Positions 1,859 through 60,442 of a DNA stretch of 62,952 nt are shown piece after piece; the stretch's first letter is position 1; each line of letters begins with the position of its first letter. The stretch spans positions 1-62,952 of the forward strand of contig JAQUWY010000007.1 in assembly GCA_028692655.1 (NCBI GenBank), in the 5' to 3' direction. Under the pieces are notes generated by a model that searched no databases, was not told the origin of the DNA, and saw only the letters and a program-made list of their open reading frames with translations. Source of the DNA: Candidatus Omnitrophota bacterium. Lineage in GTDB: Bacteria > Omnitrophota > Gorgyraeia > Duberdicusellales > 4484-171. A program made the position numbers and the translations under genes.

Positions 1859-2446
1859 ATGGATAAATTTCCAAAACGGAAACTGACTAGATTAAAAAAA
1901 TATGATTATTCACAAACAGGCTATTATTTTGTAACCATCTGCACACAAAACCGCAAAGAAATATTCGCATCGATTAAAAATAATCAAATAATATTAAACG
2001 AATTCGGCAGAATTGTTAAAAAATCATGGTTGCAAATACCCGAACATTTTAAAAACATCGAATTGGATAAATATATAATAATGCCCAACCATATCCATAC
2101 AATTATAAATATTGTAGGGGCGGGGTCACCCCGCCCGTTAAAAAACCACGACAATGATGATAACAAAATAATTGGGTATAGTATCGGGCGAGGAAACCTC
2201 GCCCCTACAAAATTGGGCCAGGTTATGGCATTTTTCAAATACCAGACAACAAAACAAATAAATAAATTACAAAATAGGCCAGGTATAAAAATATGGCAAC
2301 GTAGATATCATGACCACATTATCCGTAACGATAAATCATTGAATAGAATACGTGAATATATTGATAATAATCCTAAAACCTGGGATAATGATATTGAAAA
2401 CCCCATTAGGTTAGGTGCAATAGAATCGGAATTGATTAATGTATAA
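1859..2446 (+). CDS. REP-associated tyrosine transposase (RAYT, Y1 HUH family)
   Basis: RLKKYDYSQTGYYFVTICT, MPNHIH (HUH), WQRRYHDHIIR, YIDNNP. Confidence 0.9.
   Translation: MDKFPKRKLTRLKKYDYSQTGYYFVTICTQNRKEIFASIKNNQIILNEFGRIVKKSWLQIPEHFKNIELDKYIIMPNHIHTIINIVGAGSPRPLKNHDNDDNKIIGYSIGRGNLAPTKLGQVMAFFKYQTTKQINKLQNRPGIKIWQRRYHDHIIRNDKSLNRIREYIDNNPKTWDNDIENPIRLGAIESELINV
2114..2208. repeat. Inverted GTAG-type REP doublet inside the RAYT ORF
   Basis: GTAGGGGCGGGGTCACCCCGCCC (2114-2136) and reverse-oriented GGGCGAGGAAACCTCGCCCCTAC (2186-2208). Confidence 0.8.
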
Positions 2447-11606: not shown

Positions 11607-12437
11607 TTATGCATCGGAAGGTTCCGTGTGTAAATTCAGGATTTGCCTTAGGCTTATCCTCAAAACTTTCGAATCCTTATCCTGATAGCACAGGTAAAAA
11701 CCTTTTTTTTCTTGTGTGACCTGCAGCGGTTTAAGCAGCGCCTCTTCAACCCTCCGCGCACAAGAAAAGCATCTTGCTTTAATTACACCTTCGGAATCAA
11801 TAACCTGACGCAAGACGCCTATTTTCTTATTTTCTTGGGCCTGAAAAATGTCATTATCTAACCCGCAAAGAGATACAAGCTCCTCTAAAGTTTCAATCCC
11901 CTTTTGCTTAAAAACATCTATAAGCTTATAGAAAATTTTAGCGGCAAAAAGAGAATCATCTATCGCCCTATGGAATCCACCACTGCAATCTAAATTAAAA
12001 TAGCGGGCAACTGACTCAAGATTATATCTGGTCAGTTCCAACAAACCTCTGGCCATCGAGAGTATGTCAACAGCCGGAACATCCGGGGCTTCATAGTTGT
12101 TTTTTTTAAGATAGTGTTTAATAAACCCTACATCAAAACCGGCATTATATGCACAGATAATGGATCCTTTTAAGAATTTAATCAGGTTATCGGCAATTTC
12201 TTTAAAAGCAGGTGCATTTTTAAGTTCTTCATCAGAAATTTTATGCACCTGGTAAGCCTCCTTGGGCATAAGTTTTCCGGGATTAACCAGGCTGTGAAAT
12301 GTCTGAATCGTCCGGCGTTTTTCCATTTTTACCGCACCTATCTCACAAATTGCATCTCCCATAACAAAATCTAAGCCGGTAGTTTCTAAATCAAGAAAAA
12401 CTAAAGTGTACTCTTCAATATTTTTTTTTAAATCCAT
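11607..12437 (-). CDS. DEDDh 3'-5' exonuclease (DNA Pol III epsilon-like) with possible WYL-like C-terminus
   Basis: DLETTG, YNAGFD, HRAIDD; start moved to MDLKK. Confidence 0.85.
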   Translation of the reverse strand: MDLKKNIEEYTLVFLDLETTGLDFVMGDAICEIGAVKMEKRRTIQTFHSLVNPGKLMPKEAYQVHKISDEELKNAPAFKEIADNLIKFLKGSIICAYNAGFDVGFIKHYLKKNNYEAPDVPAVDILSMARGLLELTRYNLESVARYFNLDCSGGFHRAIDDSLFAAKIFYKLIDVFKQKGIETLEELVSLCGLDNDIFQAQENKKIGVLRQVIDSEGVIKARCFSCARRVEEALLKPLQVTQEKKGFYLCYQDKDSKVLRISLRQILNLHTEPSDA

Positions 12438-12442
12438 ATTTT

Positions 12443-12520
12443 TCGGTTTGCGGTTAACGGCGTTCGGTTTTCGGATTTTCTTTTTTTTCGAAAACCGCAA
12501 ACCTAAAACCGACAACCGAA
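12443..12520. repeat. 7-mer repeat hairpin (TTCGGTT / AAAACCG)
   Basis: ttcggtt tgcggtt aacggcg ttcggtt ttcggat facing aaaaccg caaacct aaaaccg acaaccg. Confidence 0.7.
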
Positions 12521-12524
12521 TTAA

Positions 12525-29509: not shown

Positions 29510-29745
29510 TGTATTATTCAAAAGTTAAGTTTACAGTCTACTCTATAACCGTATCATTTACCGTTAGAGGGTTGTACCTGCCTACCGGTAGGCAGGTAGC
29601 TGGAAACGGCTGTCGTTGAACGTTAATCATCTCTATTCATAAGATTTTATTAACGCAGCCGGCAAACAAATAACGATACGAGTTACGCAACCGTATACCG
29701 TTTGCCTTTACACAAAATATATAAACACATCTCCAGAATTATACA
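29510..29745 (+). mobile_element. MITE copy A (236 bp)
   Basis: TGTATTATTC..GAATTATACA imperfect ~26-bp TIRs; TTTTATC duplicated at 29503-29509 and 29746-29752. Confidence 0.9.
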
Positions 29746-29785: not shown

Positions 29786-29872
29786 GCGCGGGTGGTGGAA
29801 TTGGCAGACACGTTAGGTTGAGGGCCTAATGGTAGCAATATCATGGGGGTTCAAGTCCCCCCCCGCGCACCA
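29786..29872 (+). tRNA. tRNA-Leu(GAG)
   Basis: GCGCGGG/CCCGCGC acceptor, anticodon arm TTAGG-TTGAGGG-CCTAA, long variable arm, TTCAAGT, encoded CCA. Confidence 0.97.
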
Positions 29873-34838: not shown

Positions 34839-36839
34839 TCAGCGTAGCACCACACCCTTGTAAGAGCTTAACGCCTTCCTGATATCATTATGAAAAAAAT
34901 CTACCTCCTCAGAAGAAAGGGTTTTTTCTGGAGATTGGTAAAAAATCCTTAAGGTAAACGCAGATTGATTTGAAGGTATATTTTTGTCTTTATATACATC
35001 TACAACTTGTAAATCGCTTAAATAATTTACTTTGCTGCGAATGATTTTTTCTATTTCCTTAAACCTTACATCGCGGCACAAAGCAATGCTTATATCTCGG
35101 CTCACAACAGGATAAGCGCTGAACTGTTTAAAAAACGCTTGTGAACTTTTTTTCTGTAAAGAACCTGCGTTAATTTGGCAAAAAAATACTTCCCCTTTTA
35201 GATCAAAGTCTTTTTTTACCGCTTGGTCTAACTTCCCCACAAATCCCAGAACATCTTCTCCAACGCATAGCGCTAAAGAATTGGTAAAATTATCCATCTC
35301 GGCCTCTTTGAAGTAATAGCCTTCTATATTCAAAAACTTCATTAATAATTCTACGGAACCTTTAAGCAGAAAAAAATCCTGGTTATTTCCTCCAAAAGCC
35401 AAAGCCAGCGACGGGATTTCCAAAAACCCGCTTTTTCCCAGCCCGTAGGTATCGGCTAATTCAAAAAACTTTAATTCATTCATGCCCCTGTTGAAATTAT
35501 GCCGGAGGCACCCCAGCATACCGGAAAGTAAACTTGGGCGCAGGCTGGCTTCCTGCTTGCGTAGGGGATTTATAATTCGCACAGTCGCCTCTTCTTGAAG
35601 CCGGGCGAGATCTTCTTTGGATTCAACACTGTAGGTCACTATCTCCTTAAACCCAAGCAAAGCCGCATAATCCTTTAGCTTGTTATTAAAACAATAACTC
35701 TGTTGGCCGCCGGCTTGAATTTTGGCACAAGCTGACGCTGGCAGAAATGGTATCCTGGACGGTATCTTGTCATACCCAAAAATACGGGATACTTCCTCGT
35801 AAACATCGACTTCTTTTCCAATGTCAAACCTCAACCGTGGAGGCATAATCGAAAAAACCTTGCTCGAAACTTCTCGAACCCTGCACCCCAAGGAAACAAG
35901 AATCTTTTTCACCTTTGCTTTTGGATACATAAGACCTAGATAACCTGAAAGCTTATCCAAATCCAAAATTATTTCTTTCCTTTTCGCCGCCGGTTTTTTC
36001 CCCGAAAAGCAACCGCCTGCGTAAATTCCGGAACATTTTTTTACCATAAGGAATGCGGCCTCTCGGCAAGCACACTCTAAATTGTCTGAAGACACCATTC
36101 TCTCGAACCGGTAGGAAGCTTCCGTATCAAGGCCGGCCGCACGGCGCGACCGCCGTACCGTAAGAGGAGAGAAAACAGCCGCTTCTAAAAAAACATTTTT
36201 AGTCTGGCTGGTAACTTCTGTATTTTTTGACCCCATAACTCCTGCCAAAGCAATAACTTTTTTATCATCAGCAATAACAAGATTCTGGCCGGTTAATTCT
36301 CTCTCCTTATCGTCAATGCCCAGGAATATCTCTCCTTTTCTGGCCCGTCGCACACAAACATTGCCTTCTATCTTATCTTCATCAAAAGCATGCAGGGGAT
36401 TACCCCATTTGAGCATGCAATAATTAGTTATATCTACTACATTGTTTACCGAAGTTAAACCACAATTAGCAAGAAACTGCTGCACTTTTAGGTCGCCTGG
36501 AGCAACCTTGGCCTGCCGCAGTACTTTGGCTATATAGTAAGGGCAATCCTGGCTGTCTTCTATCTTTATTGAACGAGCCTTATAAATTTTACCGGTTAAA
36601 GCAGGCGGTTCTTTGAGCTTTAATTTCTTGCCTAAAACTGCCGCTATCTCCCGGCTAATGCCCGTAATCGAAAGCCAATCGTAGCGGTTAGTAGTAACTT
36701 CTATATCAAAAACCCAGTCGCTGCCTAGTTTTTGCAAACTCTCAACTTCCATGCCAGCCATAGTCAAAACTTGAGACAGCCTTTCGGGCTCTATTTTGAT
36801 ATCTAAAAATTCTTTTATAAAATTTAAACTAAACCTCAT
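34839..36839 (-). CDS. pheT: Phenylalanyl-tRNA synthetase beta subunit (short form)
   Basis: DIEVTTNRYD, NNVVDITNY, HAFD, DVYEEV; start moved to MRFS behind AAGGAG. Confidence 0.96.
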   Translation of the reverse strand: MRFSLNFIKEFLDIKIEPERLSQVLTMAGMEVESLQKLGSDWVFDIEVTTNRYDWLSITGISREIAAVLGKKLKLKEPPALTGKIYKARSIKIEDSQDCPYYIAKVLRQAKVAPGDLKVQQFLANCGLTSVNNVVDITNYCMLKWGNPLHAFDEDKIEGNVCVRRARKGEIFLGIDDKERELTGQNLVIADDKKVIALAGVMGSKNTEVTSQTKNVFLEAAVFSPLTVRRSRRAAGLDTEASYRFERMVSSDNLECACREAAFLMVKKCSGIYAGGCFSGKKPAAKRKEIILDLDKLSGYLGLMYPKAKVKKILVSLGCRVREVSSKVFSIMPPRLRFDIGKEVDVYEEVSRIFGYDKIPSRIPFLPASACAKIQAGGQQSYCFNNKLKDYAALLGFKEIVTYSVESKEDLARLQEEATVRIINPLRKQEASLRPSLLSGMLGCLRHNFNRGMNELKFFELADTYGLGKSGFLEIPSLALAFGGNNQDFFLLKGSVELLMKFLNIEGYYFKEAEMDNFTNSLALCVGEDVLGFVGKLDQAVKKDFDLKGEVFFCQINAGSLQKKSSQAFFKQFSAYPVVSRDISIALCRDVRFKEIEKIIRSKVNYLSDLQVVDVYKDKNIPSNQSAFTLRIFYQSPEKTLSSEEVDFFHNDIRKALSSYKGVVLR

Positions 36840-36868
36840 ACGTCGCTTCCACTCCTTCACACTGATGG

Positions 36869-36952
36869 CCGCAGACAAATATTGCAGACAGCCACAGATA
36901 AAAAACAACATTTGTAATCATCGGCGTTCTTTAGTGTCTGTGAACATCTGCG
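36869..36952. repeat. CAGAT/ATCTG degenerate hairpin element, copy 3
   Basis: cgcagac..tgcagac..cacagat facing gtctgtgaacatctgcg. Confidence 0.7.
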
Positions 36953-36955
36953 ATA

Positions 36956-38035
36956 TCAAAATTGATCTAAAAACCTGACATCGTTTTCATAAAAAAGCCG
37001 TATATCGTCTACCCCGTACTTAAGCATTGCTATTCTCTCTACGCCCATGCCGAAAGCAAATCCCCGATATTTTTTGGGACTTATCCCGCAGGCTTTTAAA
37101 ACATCCGGGTGTATCATGCCGCAGCCTAAAATTTCAAGCCAGCCTTTGCCCTTACACACGCTGCATTTAGCGGTTTGCGGTTTGCGCCTGCCTGCCAGTA
37201 GGCAGGATTTATCAGTTTGCACAAATGACTTTTTATTTCTGCATATAATACAGGAAATATCCACCTCAGCCGAAGGTTCGGTGAAAGGAAAAAAATGCGG
37301 CCTGAATCTTAAGGATACATCGGGAGAAAAAAAAGTATGCGCGAACTGCAGAAGTACGCCTTTTAAATGGGAAAAATCCAGGCTTTCAGCCACAGCAAAG
37401 CCCTCTATCTGATGAAACATAAAAGAGTGCGTAGCATCAACTTCATCGGGCCTGTAGACTCTGCCGGGAGAAATTACCGCCAAGGGCGGCTTGGCATTCT
37501 TCATTACTCGAATTTGAGAAGGCGAGGTATGGCTTCTTAATAGATATTTGCCTTTTTTTGACTCCGGAATATCCAAATAAAAGGTATCAAAAGCATCCCT
37601 GGAAGGATGGTCTAAAGGTATATTTAAAGCTTCAAAATTGTGCCATTCGTCTTCAATCTCGGTTCCCTCAATAACAGAAAATCCTATATTTTCAAAAATA
37701 GAACATATCTGCCGGTTGACTTTAGTCAATACATGCAAAGAACCAGTATCAGGAATCCTGGAAGGAAAAGTTAGATCGGTCTTAGGTTCTGTCATTTGGC
37801 CAGTAGAAAGTTTTTGCTCCAATAATACAGTCATCTTGTTTTTTAAAACATTAAGGGCTTTGCCATAAACAGCCTTTTCTTCTTTAGACAAAGAAGGAAT
37901 TTGAGAAAAAAGCTTGGCCAAAGAAGACTTACGCCCCAGAAAATCGGTCTTAATTTCTTCTAGGCTCTTAGCATCATTATCGGCCTTTAGACGGTTATTA
38001 AATTCCTGGAATAATTGTTTAATTTTTTCTTCCAT
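36956..38035 (-). CDS. pheS: Phenylalanyl-tRNA synthetase alpha subunit
   Basis: HPSRDAFDTF, LRSHTS, FHQIEG, FPFTEPSAEVD, FAFGMGVER. Confidence 0.98.
   Translation of the reverse strand: MEEKIKQLFQEFNNRLKADNDAKSLEEIKTDFLGRKSSLAKLFSQIPSLSKEEKAVYGKALNVLKNKMTVLLEQKLSTGQMTEPKTDLTFPSRIPDTGSLHVLTKVNRQICSIFENIGFSVIEGTEIEDEWHNFEALNIPLDHPSRDAFDTFYLDIPESKKGKYLLRSHTSPSQIRVMKNAKPPLAVISPGRVYRPDEVDATHSFMFHQIEGFAVAESLDFSHLKGVLLQFAHTFFSPDVSLRFRPHFFPFTEPSAEVDISCIICRNKKSFVQTDKSCLLAGRRKPQTAKCSVCKGKGWLEILGCGMIHPDVLKACGISPKKYRGFAFGMGVERIAMLKYGVDDIRLFYENDVRFLDQF
37171..37206. repeat. REP-like palindrome plus 7-mer repeats in frame inside pheS
   Basis: cggtttg x2 followed by CCTGCCTGCCAGTAGGCAGG. Confidence 0.75.
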
Positions 38036-44375: not shown

Positions 44376-44472
44376 TTCGTATAGAGTGTATCGTATTTCG
44401 TATATCGCAATGCGATAATGCCTTTCTTAAATTCTCAATACGAAGCATTATATACGCTATACGTTATACGAA
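44376..44472. repeat. 7-mer repeat hairpin (TATACG/CGTATA) between tRNA-Val and thrS
   Basis: ttcgtatagagtgtatcgtatttcgtat facing atacgaagcattatatacgctatacgttatacgaa. Confidence 0.7.
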
Positions 44473-45219
44473 AATGGTGGGCGGTGTAGGATTTGAACCT
44501 ACGACCCTCTGAATGTAAGTCAGATGCGCTTCCGCTGCGCCAACCGCCCGTTTATTTGCCCAAATTCCAAGGCCTTTAATCCAGCCGTTAATTTTTGATC
44601 TAAGGCTTGTATCTGCTATAACAATTCTAAATGTTCCTAAAGGTAACGTATCTCTTTTATTTTTACAAACCTTGCTTACAGCAAATTGTGTTTTATGAAA
44701 CTGTTTAAGTGGTATACCACTGGCTTGTGCCCAAAATTTCCTTGCTTTGTTTTCGTCTAAATGCGGATGCAAATGAAGAGCCCCTCGAAACTTAGAGCTA
44801 GAAACACCGCAGACCTCACGAAAGAAACGCATCATTAATTTAATCATCTGGGGGTCTGAATTGCTAAAATTAACCATATTCACCCCCGCCTTATATCCTT
44901 CAGCCCAATACAATGCGCTTCCAACAATACACAATGTCTTTAAAGAACAATTCGCCGGTATTTGGGCGGCCGCATCTCGCTCAATTGCCTGTCGTTTACA
45001 TAGCCAGAATTGCTTTGGGCTGTTGGGATGATTTGCGGCTTTCGCGCGTGCCCTATCTTGATTATTACGTAGCTTTGCTATTTGAACCTCTGTAAGAGCT
45101 ACGTCTCTAACCCACCTGCTTACAGAACTTTTTGAACACCCCAACTCTTTCGTAATGGACCTAACAGACCATCCTCGCTGACGTAATTGTCTCGCTTGCT
45201 GTTTTTTGTGTTTCTTCAT
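44464..45219 (-). CDS. HTH + LAGLIDADG-like domain protein; ORF reads through tRNA-Val
   Basis: N-terminal HTH (GWSVRSITKELGCSKSSVSRW); GSALYWAEG and FSNSDPQMI motifs. Confidence 0.65.
   Translation of the reverse strand: MKKHKKQQARQLRQRGWSVRSITKELGCSKSSVSRWVRDVALTEVQIAKLRNNQDRARAKAANHPNSPKQFWLCKRQAIERDAAAQIPANCSLKTLCIVGSALYWAEGYKAGVNMVNFSNSDPQMIKLMMRFFREVCGVSSSKFRGALHLHPHLDENKARKFWAQASGIPLKQFHKTQFAVSKVCKNKRDTLPLGTFRIVIADTSLRSKINGWIKGLGIWANKRAVGAAEAHLTYIQRVVGSNPTPPTIFV
44475..44549 (-). tRNA. tRNA-Val(TAC)
   Basis: GGGCGGT/ACCGCCC acceptor, TCTGA-CTTACAT-TCAGA, GTAGG-TTCAAAT-CCTAC, CCA. Confidence 0.97.
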
Positions 45220-54960: not shown

Positions 54961-55277
54961 AAAACTAAATATCTAAATTCTAAGCCCTAAATGTATTATT
55001 CGAAAGTTATGTTTACAGCCTGCTCTATAGCCGTATCATTCATCGTTAGAGAGTTGCGCCGGCCTACCGGTAGGCCGGCAGCTTGAAACGGCTGTCGTTG
55101 AACGTTAATCGTCTCCATTCCTAAGATTTTATTAACACAGCCGGCAAACGAATAACGATACGAGTTACGCAACCGTATACCGTTCGCCTTTACACAAAAT
55201 ATGTGAATATATCTTAAGAATTATACGCCCTAAACGAATTCATAGGGTTTGTTTAGGTTTTAGATTTTCGGATTTAT
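54961..55277. repeat. 7-mer repeat hairpin (CTAAAT/ATTTAG) split by MITE-B
   Basis: ctaaatatctaaattctaagccctaaa | cgaattcatagggtttgtttaggttttagattttcggattt. Confidence 0.65.
54992..55227 (+). mobile_element. MITE copy B (236 bp)
   Basis: Aligns end to end with copy A; CCCTAAA duplicated at 54985-54991 and 55228-55234. Confidence 0.9.
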
Positions 55278-55301: not shown

Positions 55302-56099
55302 TCAAAAGATATCTCTCAAATTAAACACCGGGCCGTCTTTGCAAACTTTTTTATATCCCTTTTTTGTCTCGATTACACAGCCGTGGCAAACTCCCAAGCC
55401 ACAGCCCATAAATTGTTCAAAAGATACCTGGCAATTTATCCCGGGATACTTTTTTATAATTTTATGGATTTCGTAAAACATTTCCTTGGGGCCGCAGGCA
55501 TATATCGTATATCGCAGGTCGCATGTCGTATGTCGTAAAATACCTTTCAGTAAGGCGACAACGGTACTTTTGTGGCCTCTGGAACCGTCTTCGGTAGCAA
55601 CATAAACCTTACAGCCTAAATCCTTAAATTCTTTCTCGCACAATACTTCCTTTTTTGTCTTTGCTCCCAGTAGTATTAAATTTTGATTTTTTGGTTTTGG
55701 GTCTTTGGTTTCCGTTAGTTTTTTTGCTAAAAAAACTAACGGCGCCACACCGAGGCCGCCGGCTATAAGAATATGTTGAACGTTAGACGCAGGACGCGGG
55801 ACGTAAAATCCTTTGCCGAGAGGGCCAATTATATCCAGAGCCGCTCCGGGCTTTAGCCTCGATAGCGCTTCCGTACCTTTACCCCTGACTCTAAAAAGAA
55901 TAAAAACATCTTTACCCTGGACTCTGTGAATACTCAAAGGGCGCCTCAAAAGAACAGGTTTTATTTTAAGGTGGAGAAACTGCCCCGGATAAGAGTTGGA
56001 ACTTATATAAGAAGATGTAAATCTTAGCAGAAACACATCGGATTTAAGCTTTTTTACTTCTTTAACCCTAGCTTTGATATTTTTGGCCGCTTGCTTCAT
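55302..56099 (-). CDS. pyrK: Dihydroorotate dehydrogenase electron transfer subunit
   Basis: RRPLSI, GPLGKG, AGGLGVAP, ACGP, CGLGVCHGC..C. Confidence 0.94.
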   Translation of the reverse strand: MKQAAKNIKARVKEVKKLKSDVFLLRFTSSYISSNSYPGQFLHLKIKPVLLRRPLSIHRVQGKDVFILFRVRGKGTEALSRLKPGAALDIIGPLGKGFYVPRPASNVQHILIAGGLGVAPLVFLAKKLTETKDPKPKNQNLILLGAKTKKEVLCEKEFKDLGCKVYVATEDGSRGHKSTVVALLKGILRHTTCDLRYTIYACGPKEMFYEIHKIIKKYPGINCQVSFEQFMGCGLGVCHGCVIETKKGYKKVCKDGPVFNLRDIF

Positions 56100-60121: not shown

Positions 60122-60208
60122 ACCCCTTCCCTTTTATGCTCTTGGCTTATTGCGCGCTTTGATTTTCAGTTTTCCCATTTTCCGGTTAATTCATTCAGTT
60201 CACCATAG

Positions 60209-60442
60209 TGTAAAATTGTAGAGATATGTTTACATATTTTGTATTGTCAAACGGTATACGGTTGCGTAACTCGTATCGTTATTCGTTTGCCGGCTGCGTT
60301 AATAAAATCTCATGAATAGAGACAGTTGACGTTCAACGACAGCCGTTTCAAGCTACCTGCCTACCGGTAGGCAGGCACAACCCTCTAACGATGAATGACA
60401 CGGCTATAGAGTAGGCTGTAAACATAACTTTCGAATAATACA
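60209..60442 (-). mobile_element. MITE copy C (234 bp, inverted)
   Basis: Reverse complement aligns with A and B; no target duplication visible. Confidence 0.88.

Follow-up and report, generated by a model that had tools for sequence, protein, structure and literature searches.

The DNA analysed here (the window) is the 62,952-nucleotide (nt) contig JAQUWY010000007.1 of a metagenome-assembled Omnitrophota genome (1.65 Mb, 62 contigs; designated G000). Our subject is its pheS gene, which encodes the alpha subunit of phenylalanyl-tRNA synthetase (PheRS) and in which a stretch of repeat DNA is translated in frame within a linker between two CxxC pairs. The gene is an intact open reading frame (ORF), and with pheT it forms an ordinary pheST operon whose gene order is the same on related contigs. 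Pfam finds both the class II core domain (F) (tRNA-synt_2d, PF01409; 326 bits, 1.9e-97) and the N-terminal helical domain (Phe_tRNA-synt_N, PF02912; 51.9 bits). PheRS alpha chains in the PDB match the protein with a best E-value of 1.8e-95, and the best match among 5.8 billion proteins is an Omnitrophota PheS with 69% identity. Every invariant column of a 42-sequence alignment is kept, including C262, C265, C291 and C294. These four cysteines follow class II motif 2 (FPFTEPSAEVDIS) in the order CIIC-RNKKSFVQTDKSCLLAGRRKPQTAK-CSVC, and we assume from the motif that the resulting CxxC...CxxC knuckle binds zinc; literature searches on zinc in four-cysteine PheS returned nothing usable. The features discussed below are collected in Table 1.

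On the plus strand of the linker DNA, the palindrome CCTGCCTGCCAGTAGGCAGG starts immediately after a GCGGTTT tract that occurs once within the window. The central 6 nt of the palindrome are no longer symmetrical, which leaves a 7-bp stem. An earlier note on this DNA had derived RKPQT from a 7-mer repeat and CLLAGR from a palindrome related to the core of a miniature inverted-repeat transposable element (MITE), and both derivations hold: the tract supplies the former, and the palindrome agrees with the 20-nt MITE core at 18 of 20 positions, a level of match that shuffled windows never reached (0 such matches). Elsewhere in the genome the GCGGTTT unit forms six further arrays and its one-nucleotide variant AAAACCG forms 19; arrays of AAACCGC and AAAACCG rank among the commonest heptamers of the genome.

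Table 1. Coordinates and composition of the features in the window, and repeat content of the PheS linker in other genomes and contigs
Feature	Position	Strand	Details
pheS (phenylalanyl-tRNA synthetase alpha subunit)	36956..38035	-	intact ORF, 359 aa
pheT (beta subunit), directly downstream of pheS	34839..36911	-	ORF
CIIC, first half of four-Cys knuckle	37241..37252	-	residues 262-265; C262 and C265 invariant in 42 homologs
25-residue linker RNKKSFVQTDKSCLLAGRRKPQTAK	37166..37240	-	residues 266-290
CSVC, second half of four-Cys knuckle	37154..37165	-	residues 291-294; C291 and C294 invariant in 42 homologs
Heptamer tract GCGGTTT x2.4	37170..37186		Tandem Repeats Finder (TRF); coding strand CGCAAACCGCAAACCGC, translated as RKPQTA
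20-nt palindrome CCTGCCTGCCAGTAGGCAGG	37187..37206		7-bp stem, 6-nt centre; translated as (S)CLLAGR
Whole stretch similar to profile of intergenic repeat family 2	37169..37211		nhmmer
ATTTA direct repeat, copy 1, flank of 37-nt core	37165..37169		flank comparison
ATTTA direct repeat, copy 2, flank of 37-nt core	37207..37211		flank comparison
Family-1 MITE copy A, 235 nt	29510..29744	+	perfect palindrome CCTGCCTACCGGTAGGCAGG at 29577-29596
Family-1 MITE copy B, 235 nt	54992..55226	+	palindrome CCGGCCTACCGGTAGGCCGG (variant at 55059)
Family-1 MITE copy C, 235 nt	60208..60442	-	palindrome at 60356-60375
G003 linker			AACTCCG x3
G020 linker			CCAGAAA-type x4
G039 linker			GAGCCGGT-type octamers x4
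G051 linker			ACAGACC x4
G042 linker			CGCTTCA x3
G049 linker			GTCAGAA x6
Metagenome contigs P0015 and P0021, linker			heptamers on flanks of GC-rich hairpins
Metagenome contigs P0011 and P0040, linker			GC-rich hairpins; no clear heptamer tract

The same arrangement is found between genes. Repeat family 2 is a composite intergenic repeat of 400-500 nt, with several short tandem repeats around CGGTTTTCGGTTAGCG-CCTGCCTGCCGGTAGGCAAGG-TTTTAACTT, and in about 14-20 copies a heptamer and the palindrome lie side by side. With blastn, positions 37171-37204 of pheS align with at least four copies of this family at 31/34 identity (E-value 1.8e-5). A profile built from 12 copies and run with nhmmer against the whole genome matches 37169-37211 over profile positions 26-69 (E-value 8.5e-7, 28.9 bits), the top match outside bona fide elements. 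The palindrome together with its GCG prefix differs by a single mismatch (20/21) from GCGCCTGCCTGCCGGTAGGCA, which is present in multiple copies in the genome. Since heptamer and palindrome adjoin in this donor as well, pheS holds one contiguous module, and the earlier proposal that two repeat types had entered one loop has to be given up. When the ORFs around all 31 palindrome sites in the genome were checked, pheS proved to be the only site in a long one (362 codons), the ORFs at the other sites having at most 147 codons.

A sequence of this kind could in principle originate in place: local replication slippage in a loop rich in A would have produced the heptamers, and convergence or chance would explain why the palindrome resembles the genomic repeat. 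Of the long simple repeats known from bacteria, those with heptanucleotide units are the most frequent and are ascribed to polymerase slippage (PMC4692102, PMC4679880), and the loops of many relatives do contain heptamers without the palindrome. We nevertheless regard an origin in place as improbable, given the near-identity of palindrome and prefix to a genomic repeat, the genome-wide significance of the joint heptamer-palindrome match and the empty result in shuffled windows; moreover, a slippage step of 7 nt would break the frame.

The outline of the insert can be traced in the DNA. A 37-nt core (37170-37206) is flanked by a direct repeat of ATTTA, and the core plus one 5-nt copy amounts to 42 nt, or 14 codons. 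With positions 37170-37211 taken out in silico, the frame stays open and reads CIIC-RNKKSFVQTDK-CSVC, an 11-residue loop that has both the family consensus K at its end and the modal length of the family. Chance alone would produce an exact 5-nt flank repeat at 0.23% of window positions, and at about 6% when some shift of the boundaries is permitted. An assembly or binning artefact, in which a repeat fragment was misjoined into pheS from metagenomic reads, is scarcely credible. Repeats do break the assembly elsewhere, with several copies near contig ends, but here the insert is exactly in frame, pheS continues on both sides and the 63-kb contig also spans three MITE copies. By blastn the insert differs in sequence from all the other genomic copies, which speaks against a collapsed repeat.

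The insert is specific to this lineage. Ten order- or class-level relatives have a linker of four residues (KGKG and similar), and E. coli-type PheS is without the cysteines. Pseudomonas aeruginosa PheRS (PDB 4p71) resembles the window protein in having CxxC...CxxC right after class II motif 2 (FPFTEPSAEVD) and in flanks that align closely, but its linker has about 4 residues against 25 here. The long loop recognised in the earlier note is therefore real, although its count of about 24 was one short; likewise, its statement that bacterial PheS normally has a few residues at this point fits P. aeruginosa and the outgroups but not the organism's own family, where 6-37 residues are the rule. Linkers measure 6-21 residues in 19 family genomes and 4-23 in another 22, and among 120 database homologs they range from 6 to 37 with a mode of 11 (39/120). 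K, R, S, N and Q abound in these 120 homologous linkers, which cannot be aligned with one another and contain no Cys and no Trp; about one residue in three is K, and K or R nearly always precedes CSVC. The C, L and L encoded by the insert are atypical in this setting, where Cys is absent and Leu accounts for 1.4% of residues, and the additional Cys falls between the presumed metal ligands. A tree built with the loop masked places P0026 and P0035 nearest to the window PheS (support 0.77), and their loops, EGNDKGAR and EGKAVSSGAR, are unrelated to its own. At the DNA level, the CCTGCC palindrome was found in the PheS loop of none of 51 relatives, including genomes that carry it elsewhere. No relative examined has the loop conserved at the protein level; in particular, lineages that lack the repeat show no conserved long loop, the observation that the earlier note had named as evidence against its own reading.

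Nowhere in PheS does length vary more within the family than in this linker, which has been filled repeatedly by each genome's own repeats. In at least six other genomes it is made of tandem repeats with 7- or 8-nt units native to the genome concerned, and heptamer or hairpin motifs occur there in four metagenome contigs as well (Table 1). In DNA pooled from 17 expanded loops, self-similarity is highest at lags of 7 and 8 nt (0.42 and 0.41), compared with 0.32-0.35 at neighbouring lags; in the rest of the gene the values at lags 7-8 are 0.25-0.27, and only the usual codon signal is seen. G003, G020 and G039 each carry further copies of their loop repeat elsewhere in the genome, and reversed-pattern controls gave almost no matches.

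It is conceivable that the insert has acquired a role in the enzyme, such as that of a basic (RRK) arm contacting tRNA-Phe or another RNA, and that the K/R-rich loops of the family are selected extensions. An expanded loop does persist in most genera of the family, and its strongly basic composition, with K or R almost always before CSVC, fits such a role. Yet loop sequence and length differ even between neighbouring lineages, four residues suffice in the ten more distant relatives, the insert brings in C, L and L, which homologous loops avoid, and the period of the loop DNA is 7-8 nt, not that of codons. Stop-free A-rich repeats yield K, N, Q, T and R in any frame, and the basicity may thus be a by-product. 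Functional recruitment is, on balance, unlikely, and the term domestication used in the earlier note goes further than the evidence, which favours a tolerated insertion. The atypical residues, together with the lack of a close relative in which conservation could be assessed, lead us to speak of tolerance, not of an acquired function.

We therefore consider the pheS insert to be a tolerated, DNA-driven, in-frame insertion of the kind represented by Rickettsia palindromic elements (RPEs), at a recurrent hot spot, with a probability of roughly 0.78. Several observations weigh against this interpretation. The repeat match in pheS is short, at 34-43 nt. The ATTTA beside the palindrome aligns with TTTTA of the donor as well, and the ATTTA pair may accordingly be microhomology instead of a true target duplication. 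The nearest PheS is only 69% identical, too distant for a direct presence/absence comparison of the insert. Finally, the metagenomic sequence P0040, from a different clade, has a loop reading YLLARQG that is encoded by the hairpin GCCTACCTGCTGGCAAGGCAGG with a similar stem, and this hairpin could represent an older or recurrent event. Common ancestry of the two was rejected, as P0040 is not near the window PheS in the loop-masked tree; its hairpin is possibly an independent event.

The MITE named in the earlier note belongs to a separate repeat family (family 1), with about 15 copies in the genome and three in the window. Its terminal inverted repeats are GTATTATTC/GAATTATAC, and two copies have target duplications of 7-8 bp (TTTTATC in copy A, GCCCTAAA in copy B). 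In copy B both palindrome arms are altered together and the symmetry remains perfect. We rejected the MITE as donor: the common part is only the 20-nt core, the match to family 2 is better and longer, and blastn with the whole MITE gave no extension into pheS. Judged by similarity over the whole element, with terminal inverted repeats and target duplication, the pheS insert is not a family-1 copy. An Rfam scan covering the window, with gathering thresholds, returned two tRNAs only, and the MITE and the palindrome thus correspond to no described RNA family. A tRNA gene (29786-29869) lies 41 nt beyond the end of copy A.

At C46:8155, C15:50185, C45:18575 and C47:5383 of the genome, unlike repeat arms meet exactly at the 20-nt palindrome. 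In these chimeric elements, a left or right MITE arm lies on one side and a T-rich array of family 2 on the other, a pattern suggestive of recombination or cleavage at this site. Because the palindrome both joins such chimeras and was kept perfect through a change in two arms, it appears to be an independent, recombination-prone unit. The form GCGCCTGCCTGCCGG(T/C)AGGCA is present in 19/60 family genomes and 16/37 genera, usually in several copies with varying flanks, while the reversed control gave 0 matches. A full-text literature search found no paper describing these repeats in Omnitrophota.

Conservation as a unit with differing flanks, the double compensatory change and the position at chimeric junctions might also be read as signs of a working cis-element, the hairpin being a regulatory RNA or protein site of pheST or the site of a factor common to the family, and its coding role incidental. 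In pheS, however, the symmetry of the central 6 nt has been lost, with 7 bp of stem remaining. The hairpin appears in the local RNA fold, but that fold is unremarkable (z -1.8), and the pheS genes of the 51 relatives examined lack the palindrome. We judge a cis-element to be very unlikely. An internal terminator or attenuator at the palindrome was rejected in turn: the scan found no terminator-like tail or promoter, and the fold is that just given. Nothing here suggests a function for the insert, and the hairpin is modest.

The genome also encodes relatives of the REP-associated tyrosine transposases (RAYTs; REP, repetitive extragenic palindromic sequence): one is a 195-residue ORF in the window (1859-2446), another copy lies at C14:13511-14122, and C18:1-120 holds a fragment. 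Across the 60 genomes, the palindrome goes with a RAYT homolog (counts 13/6/10/31, odds ratio 6.7, Fisher p 0.0017, with phylogeny ignored). The CCTGCC palindrome was found near neither of the two RAYT copies of this genome; in G006 a RAYT fragment has one at a distance of about 60 nt. The RAYT ORF of the window itself reads through two GC-rich hairpins (2108-2147 and 2175-2214) just after its HIH motif. The hairpin peptides are VGAGSPRPL and IGRGNLAPT in the window and, in RAYT homologs, NNPVGDGHAHP (G006) and NNPVGTGHALS (G042), at the same position and from different hairpins, and this site looks like another reused slot for in-frame hairpins.

Heptamers are not confined to pheS. Long ORFs contain 35 period-7 arrays, compared with 91 in the remaining 19% of the genome, an enrichment of about 11-fold for the sequence outside them. 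In-frame 7-nt arrays also occur in the alpha subunit of 2-oxoacid:ferredoxin oxidoreductase (POR-alpha), a GltD-like protein, MnmE, LysA, HisF and PyrK. The array in POR-alpha (C14:1741-1778), TTTGCGG x5.4, has its unit in common with pheS; it is in frame (NRKPLIRNRKPKR) and lies where the POR_N match (residues 20-201) ends. PyrK (55302-56099, minus strand), which has FAD, NAD and Fe-S domains by Pfam, contains tracts of TATGTCG x5.3 (55501-55537) and TTTTTGG x3.4 (55688-55711), translated in frame as RHTTCDLRYTIY and TETKDPKPKNQN.

Further arrays were seen in the window and in other genomes. At 12440-12520, facing 7-nt arrays (TTTTCGG x5.7 and CGAAAAC x4.6) stand in mirror arrangement a short way upstream of where the ORF at 11610-12524 probably starts. 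Between tRNA-Val (44478-44549) and the start of a 592-codon frame, TCGTATA x4.4 and TATACGC x2.9 occupy 44377-44470; the frame is thrS-like by eye, and these arrays, upstream of its first Met, are noncoding. The AACTCCG unit of G003 is in frame in a 909-codon ORF (L041, G003:C105:12814-12841) that is ValRS-like by its HMGH signature. In G039, the octamers are in frame in a 347-codon ORF right after NISCPNV (L047, G039:C12), which by eye resembles dihydroorotate dehydrogenase (DHODH, PyrD), and in a 288-codon ORF. The PheS of G039 has a second in-frame octamer insert after AFDTFYL (LASEPVNQLANEQANRQTG; L050, G039:C47:24245-24268).

Among known systems, the insert is nearest in kind to RPEs. These are elements of about 100-150 bp, in families that each have a conserved peptide, inserted in dozens of genes (Ogata et al. 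2000, summarised in PMC10969869). As in the RPEs of that summary, a multi-copy palindromic repeat of the genome stands in frame in an unrelated essential gene, is read through with the protein left intact and is missing from orthologues; the earlier note had drawn this parallel, and it is sound. The status of the insert as a copy of a multi-copy repeat follows from the blastn and nhmmer matches and the roughly 31 palindrome sites, and its absence from orthologues is to be read with the 69% identity of the nearest one in mind. Measured against the same summary (PMC10969869), there are four differences: the insert is smaller (37-43 nt, not an element of 100-150 bp), it combines heptamers with a 20-nt palindrome, it has no conserved peptide shared by many insertions, being the sole coding copy of the palindrome, and it occupies a hot spot reused across genera.

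The likeness to REPs and their REPIN composites lies in a short GC-rich palindrome with tens of copies, mostly extragenic, in a genome with RAYT genes; the palindromes here do not flank the RAYT genes, however. Classical REPs are not usually translated. Known heptanucleotide repeats, such as GGGAATC of Xanthomonas, GGGGAYT of Nostoc and TAACTGA of Beggiatoaceae, are essentially intergenic or at gene edges (PMC4692102, PMC4679880). The units described here are similarly specific to the genome and enriched between genes, with occasional copies in ORFs, and the GCGGTTT tract of pheS is itself a tandem 7-nt array of an abundant, mainly intergenic type. They differ in lying within internal loops of housekeeping enzymes and in being coupled to a palindrome.

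A tolerated insertion at this spot could have come about as follows. We infer that movement was from intergenic repeat to gene: a 37-nt module (2.4 units of GCGGTTT plus the 20-nt GC-rich palindrome) would have inserted in frame between the CxxC halves and, with the 5-nt ATTTA duplication or microhomology, would have added 42 nt and lengthened the linker from 11 to 25 residues. Translated as ...SCLLAGRRKPQTA..., the extra length would bulge out as a surface loop, and it is probably tolerated, even neutral, since the four cysteines would anchor the linker at its base. A position on the protein surface is suggested by the hypervariability of the site, which also speaks for tolerance; an AlphaFold2 model from the 42-sequence alignment (mean predicted local distance difference test score 64, residues 269-287 below 50) is too poor as a whole to place the loop or to warrant a fold search. 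The mechanism might be a hairpin-directed single-strand transposition by a Y1/RAYT-type enzyme, or else template switching at microhomology during replication.

The footprint of the insertion can be recovered, from the 42 nt and the 5-nt direct repeats to the reconstructable empty site, and it documents how, in an essential aminoacyl-tRNA synthetase, selfish or simple-repeat DNA becomes protein between ligands of a presumed metal site. The same loop has been refilled across genera, each time by the repeats of the genome concerned. This makes it a test system for loop gain, for the tolerance of insertions in the core of an aminoacyl-tRNA synthetase and for the movement of Omnitrophota heptamers and palindromes; for phylogenomics of uncultured lineages, it means that gaps in marker-gene alignments are inflated by such inserts. 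We offer tentatively, and with considerable doubt, the broader idea that the family may have an active process, guided by sequence or DNA structure, that writes and rewrites short heptamer-plus-hairpin modules into permissive loop codons, perhaps through a single-strand nuclease of RAYT/Y1 type acting on CCTGCC...GGCAGG, with the PheS linker as a conserved landing pad. If this were true, loops of essential proteins would be continually remodelled by the genome's own flavour of repeat and not by point mutation.

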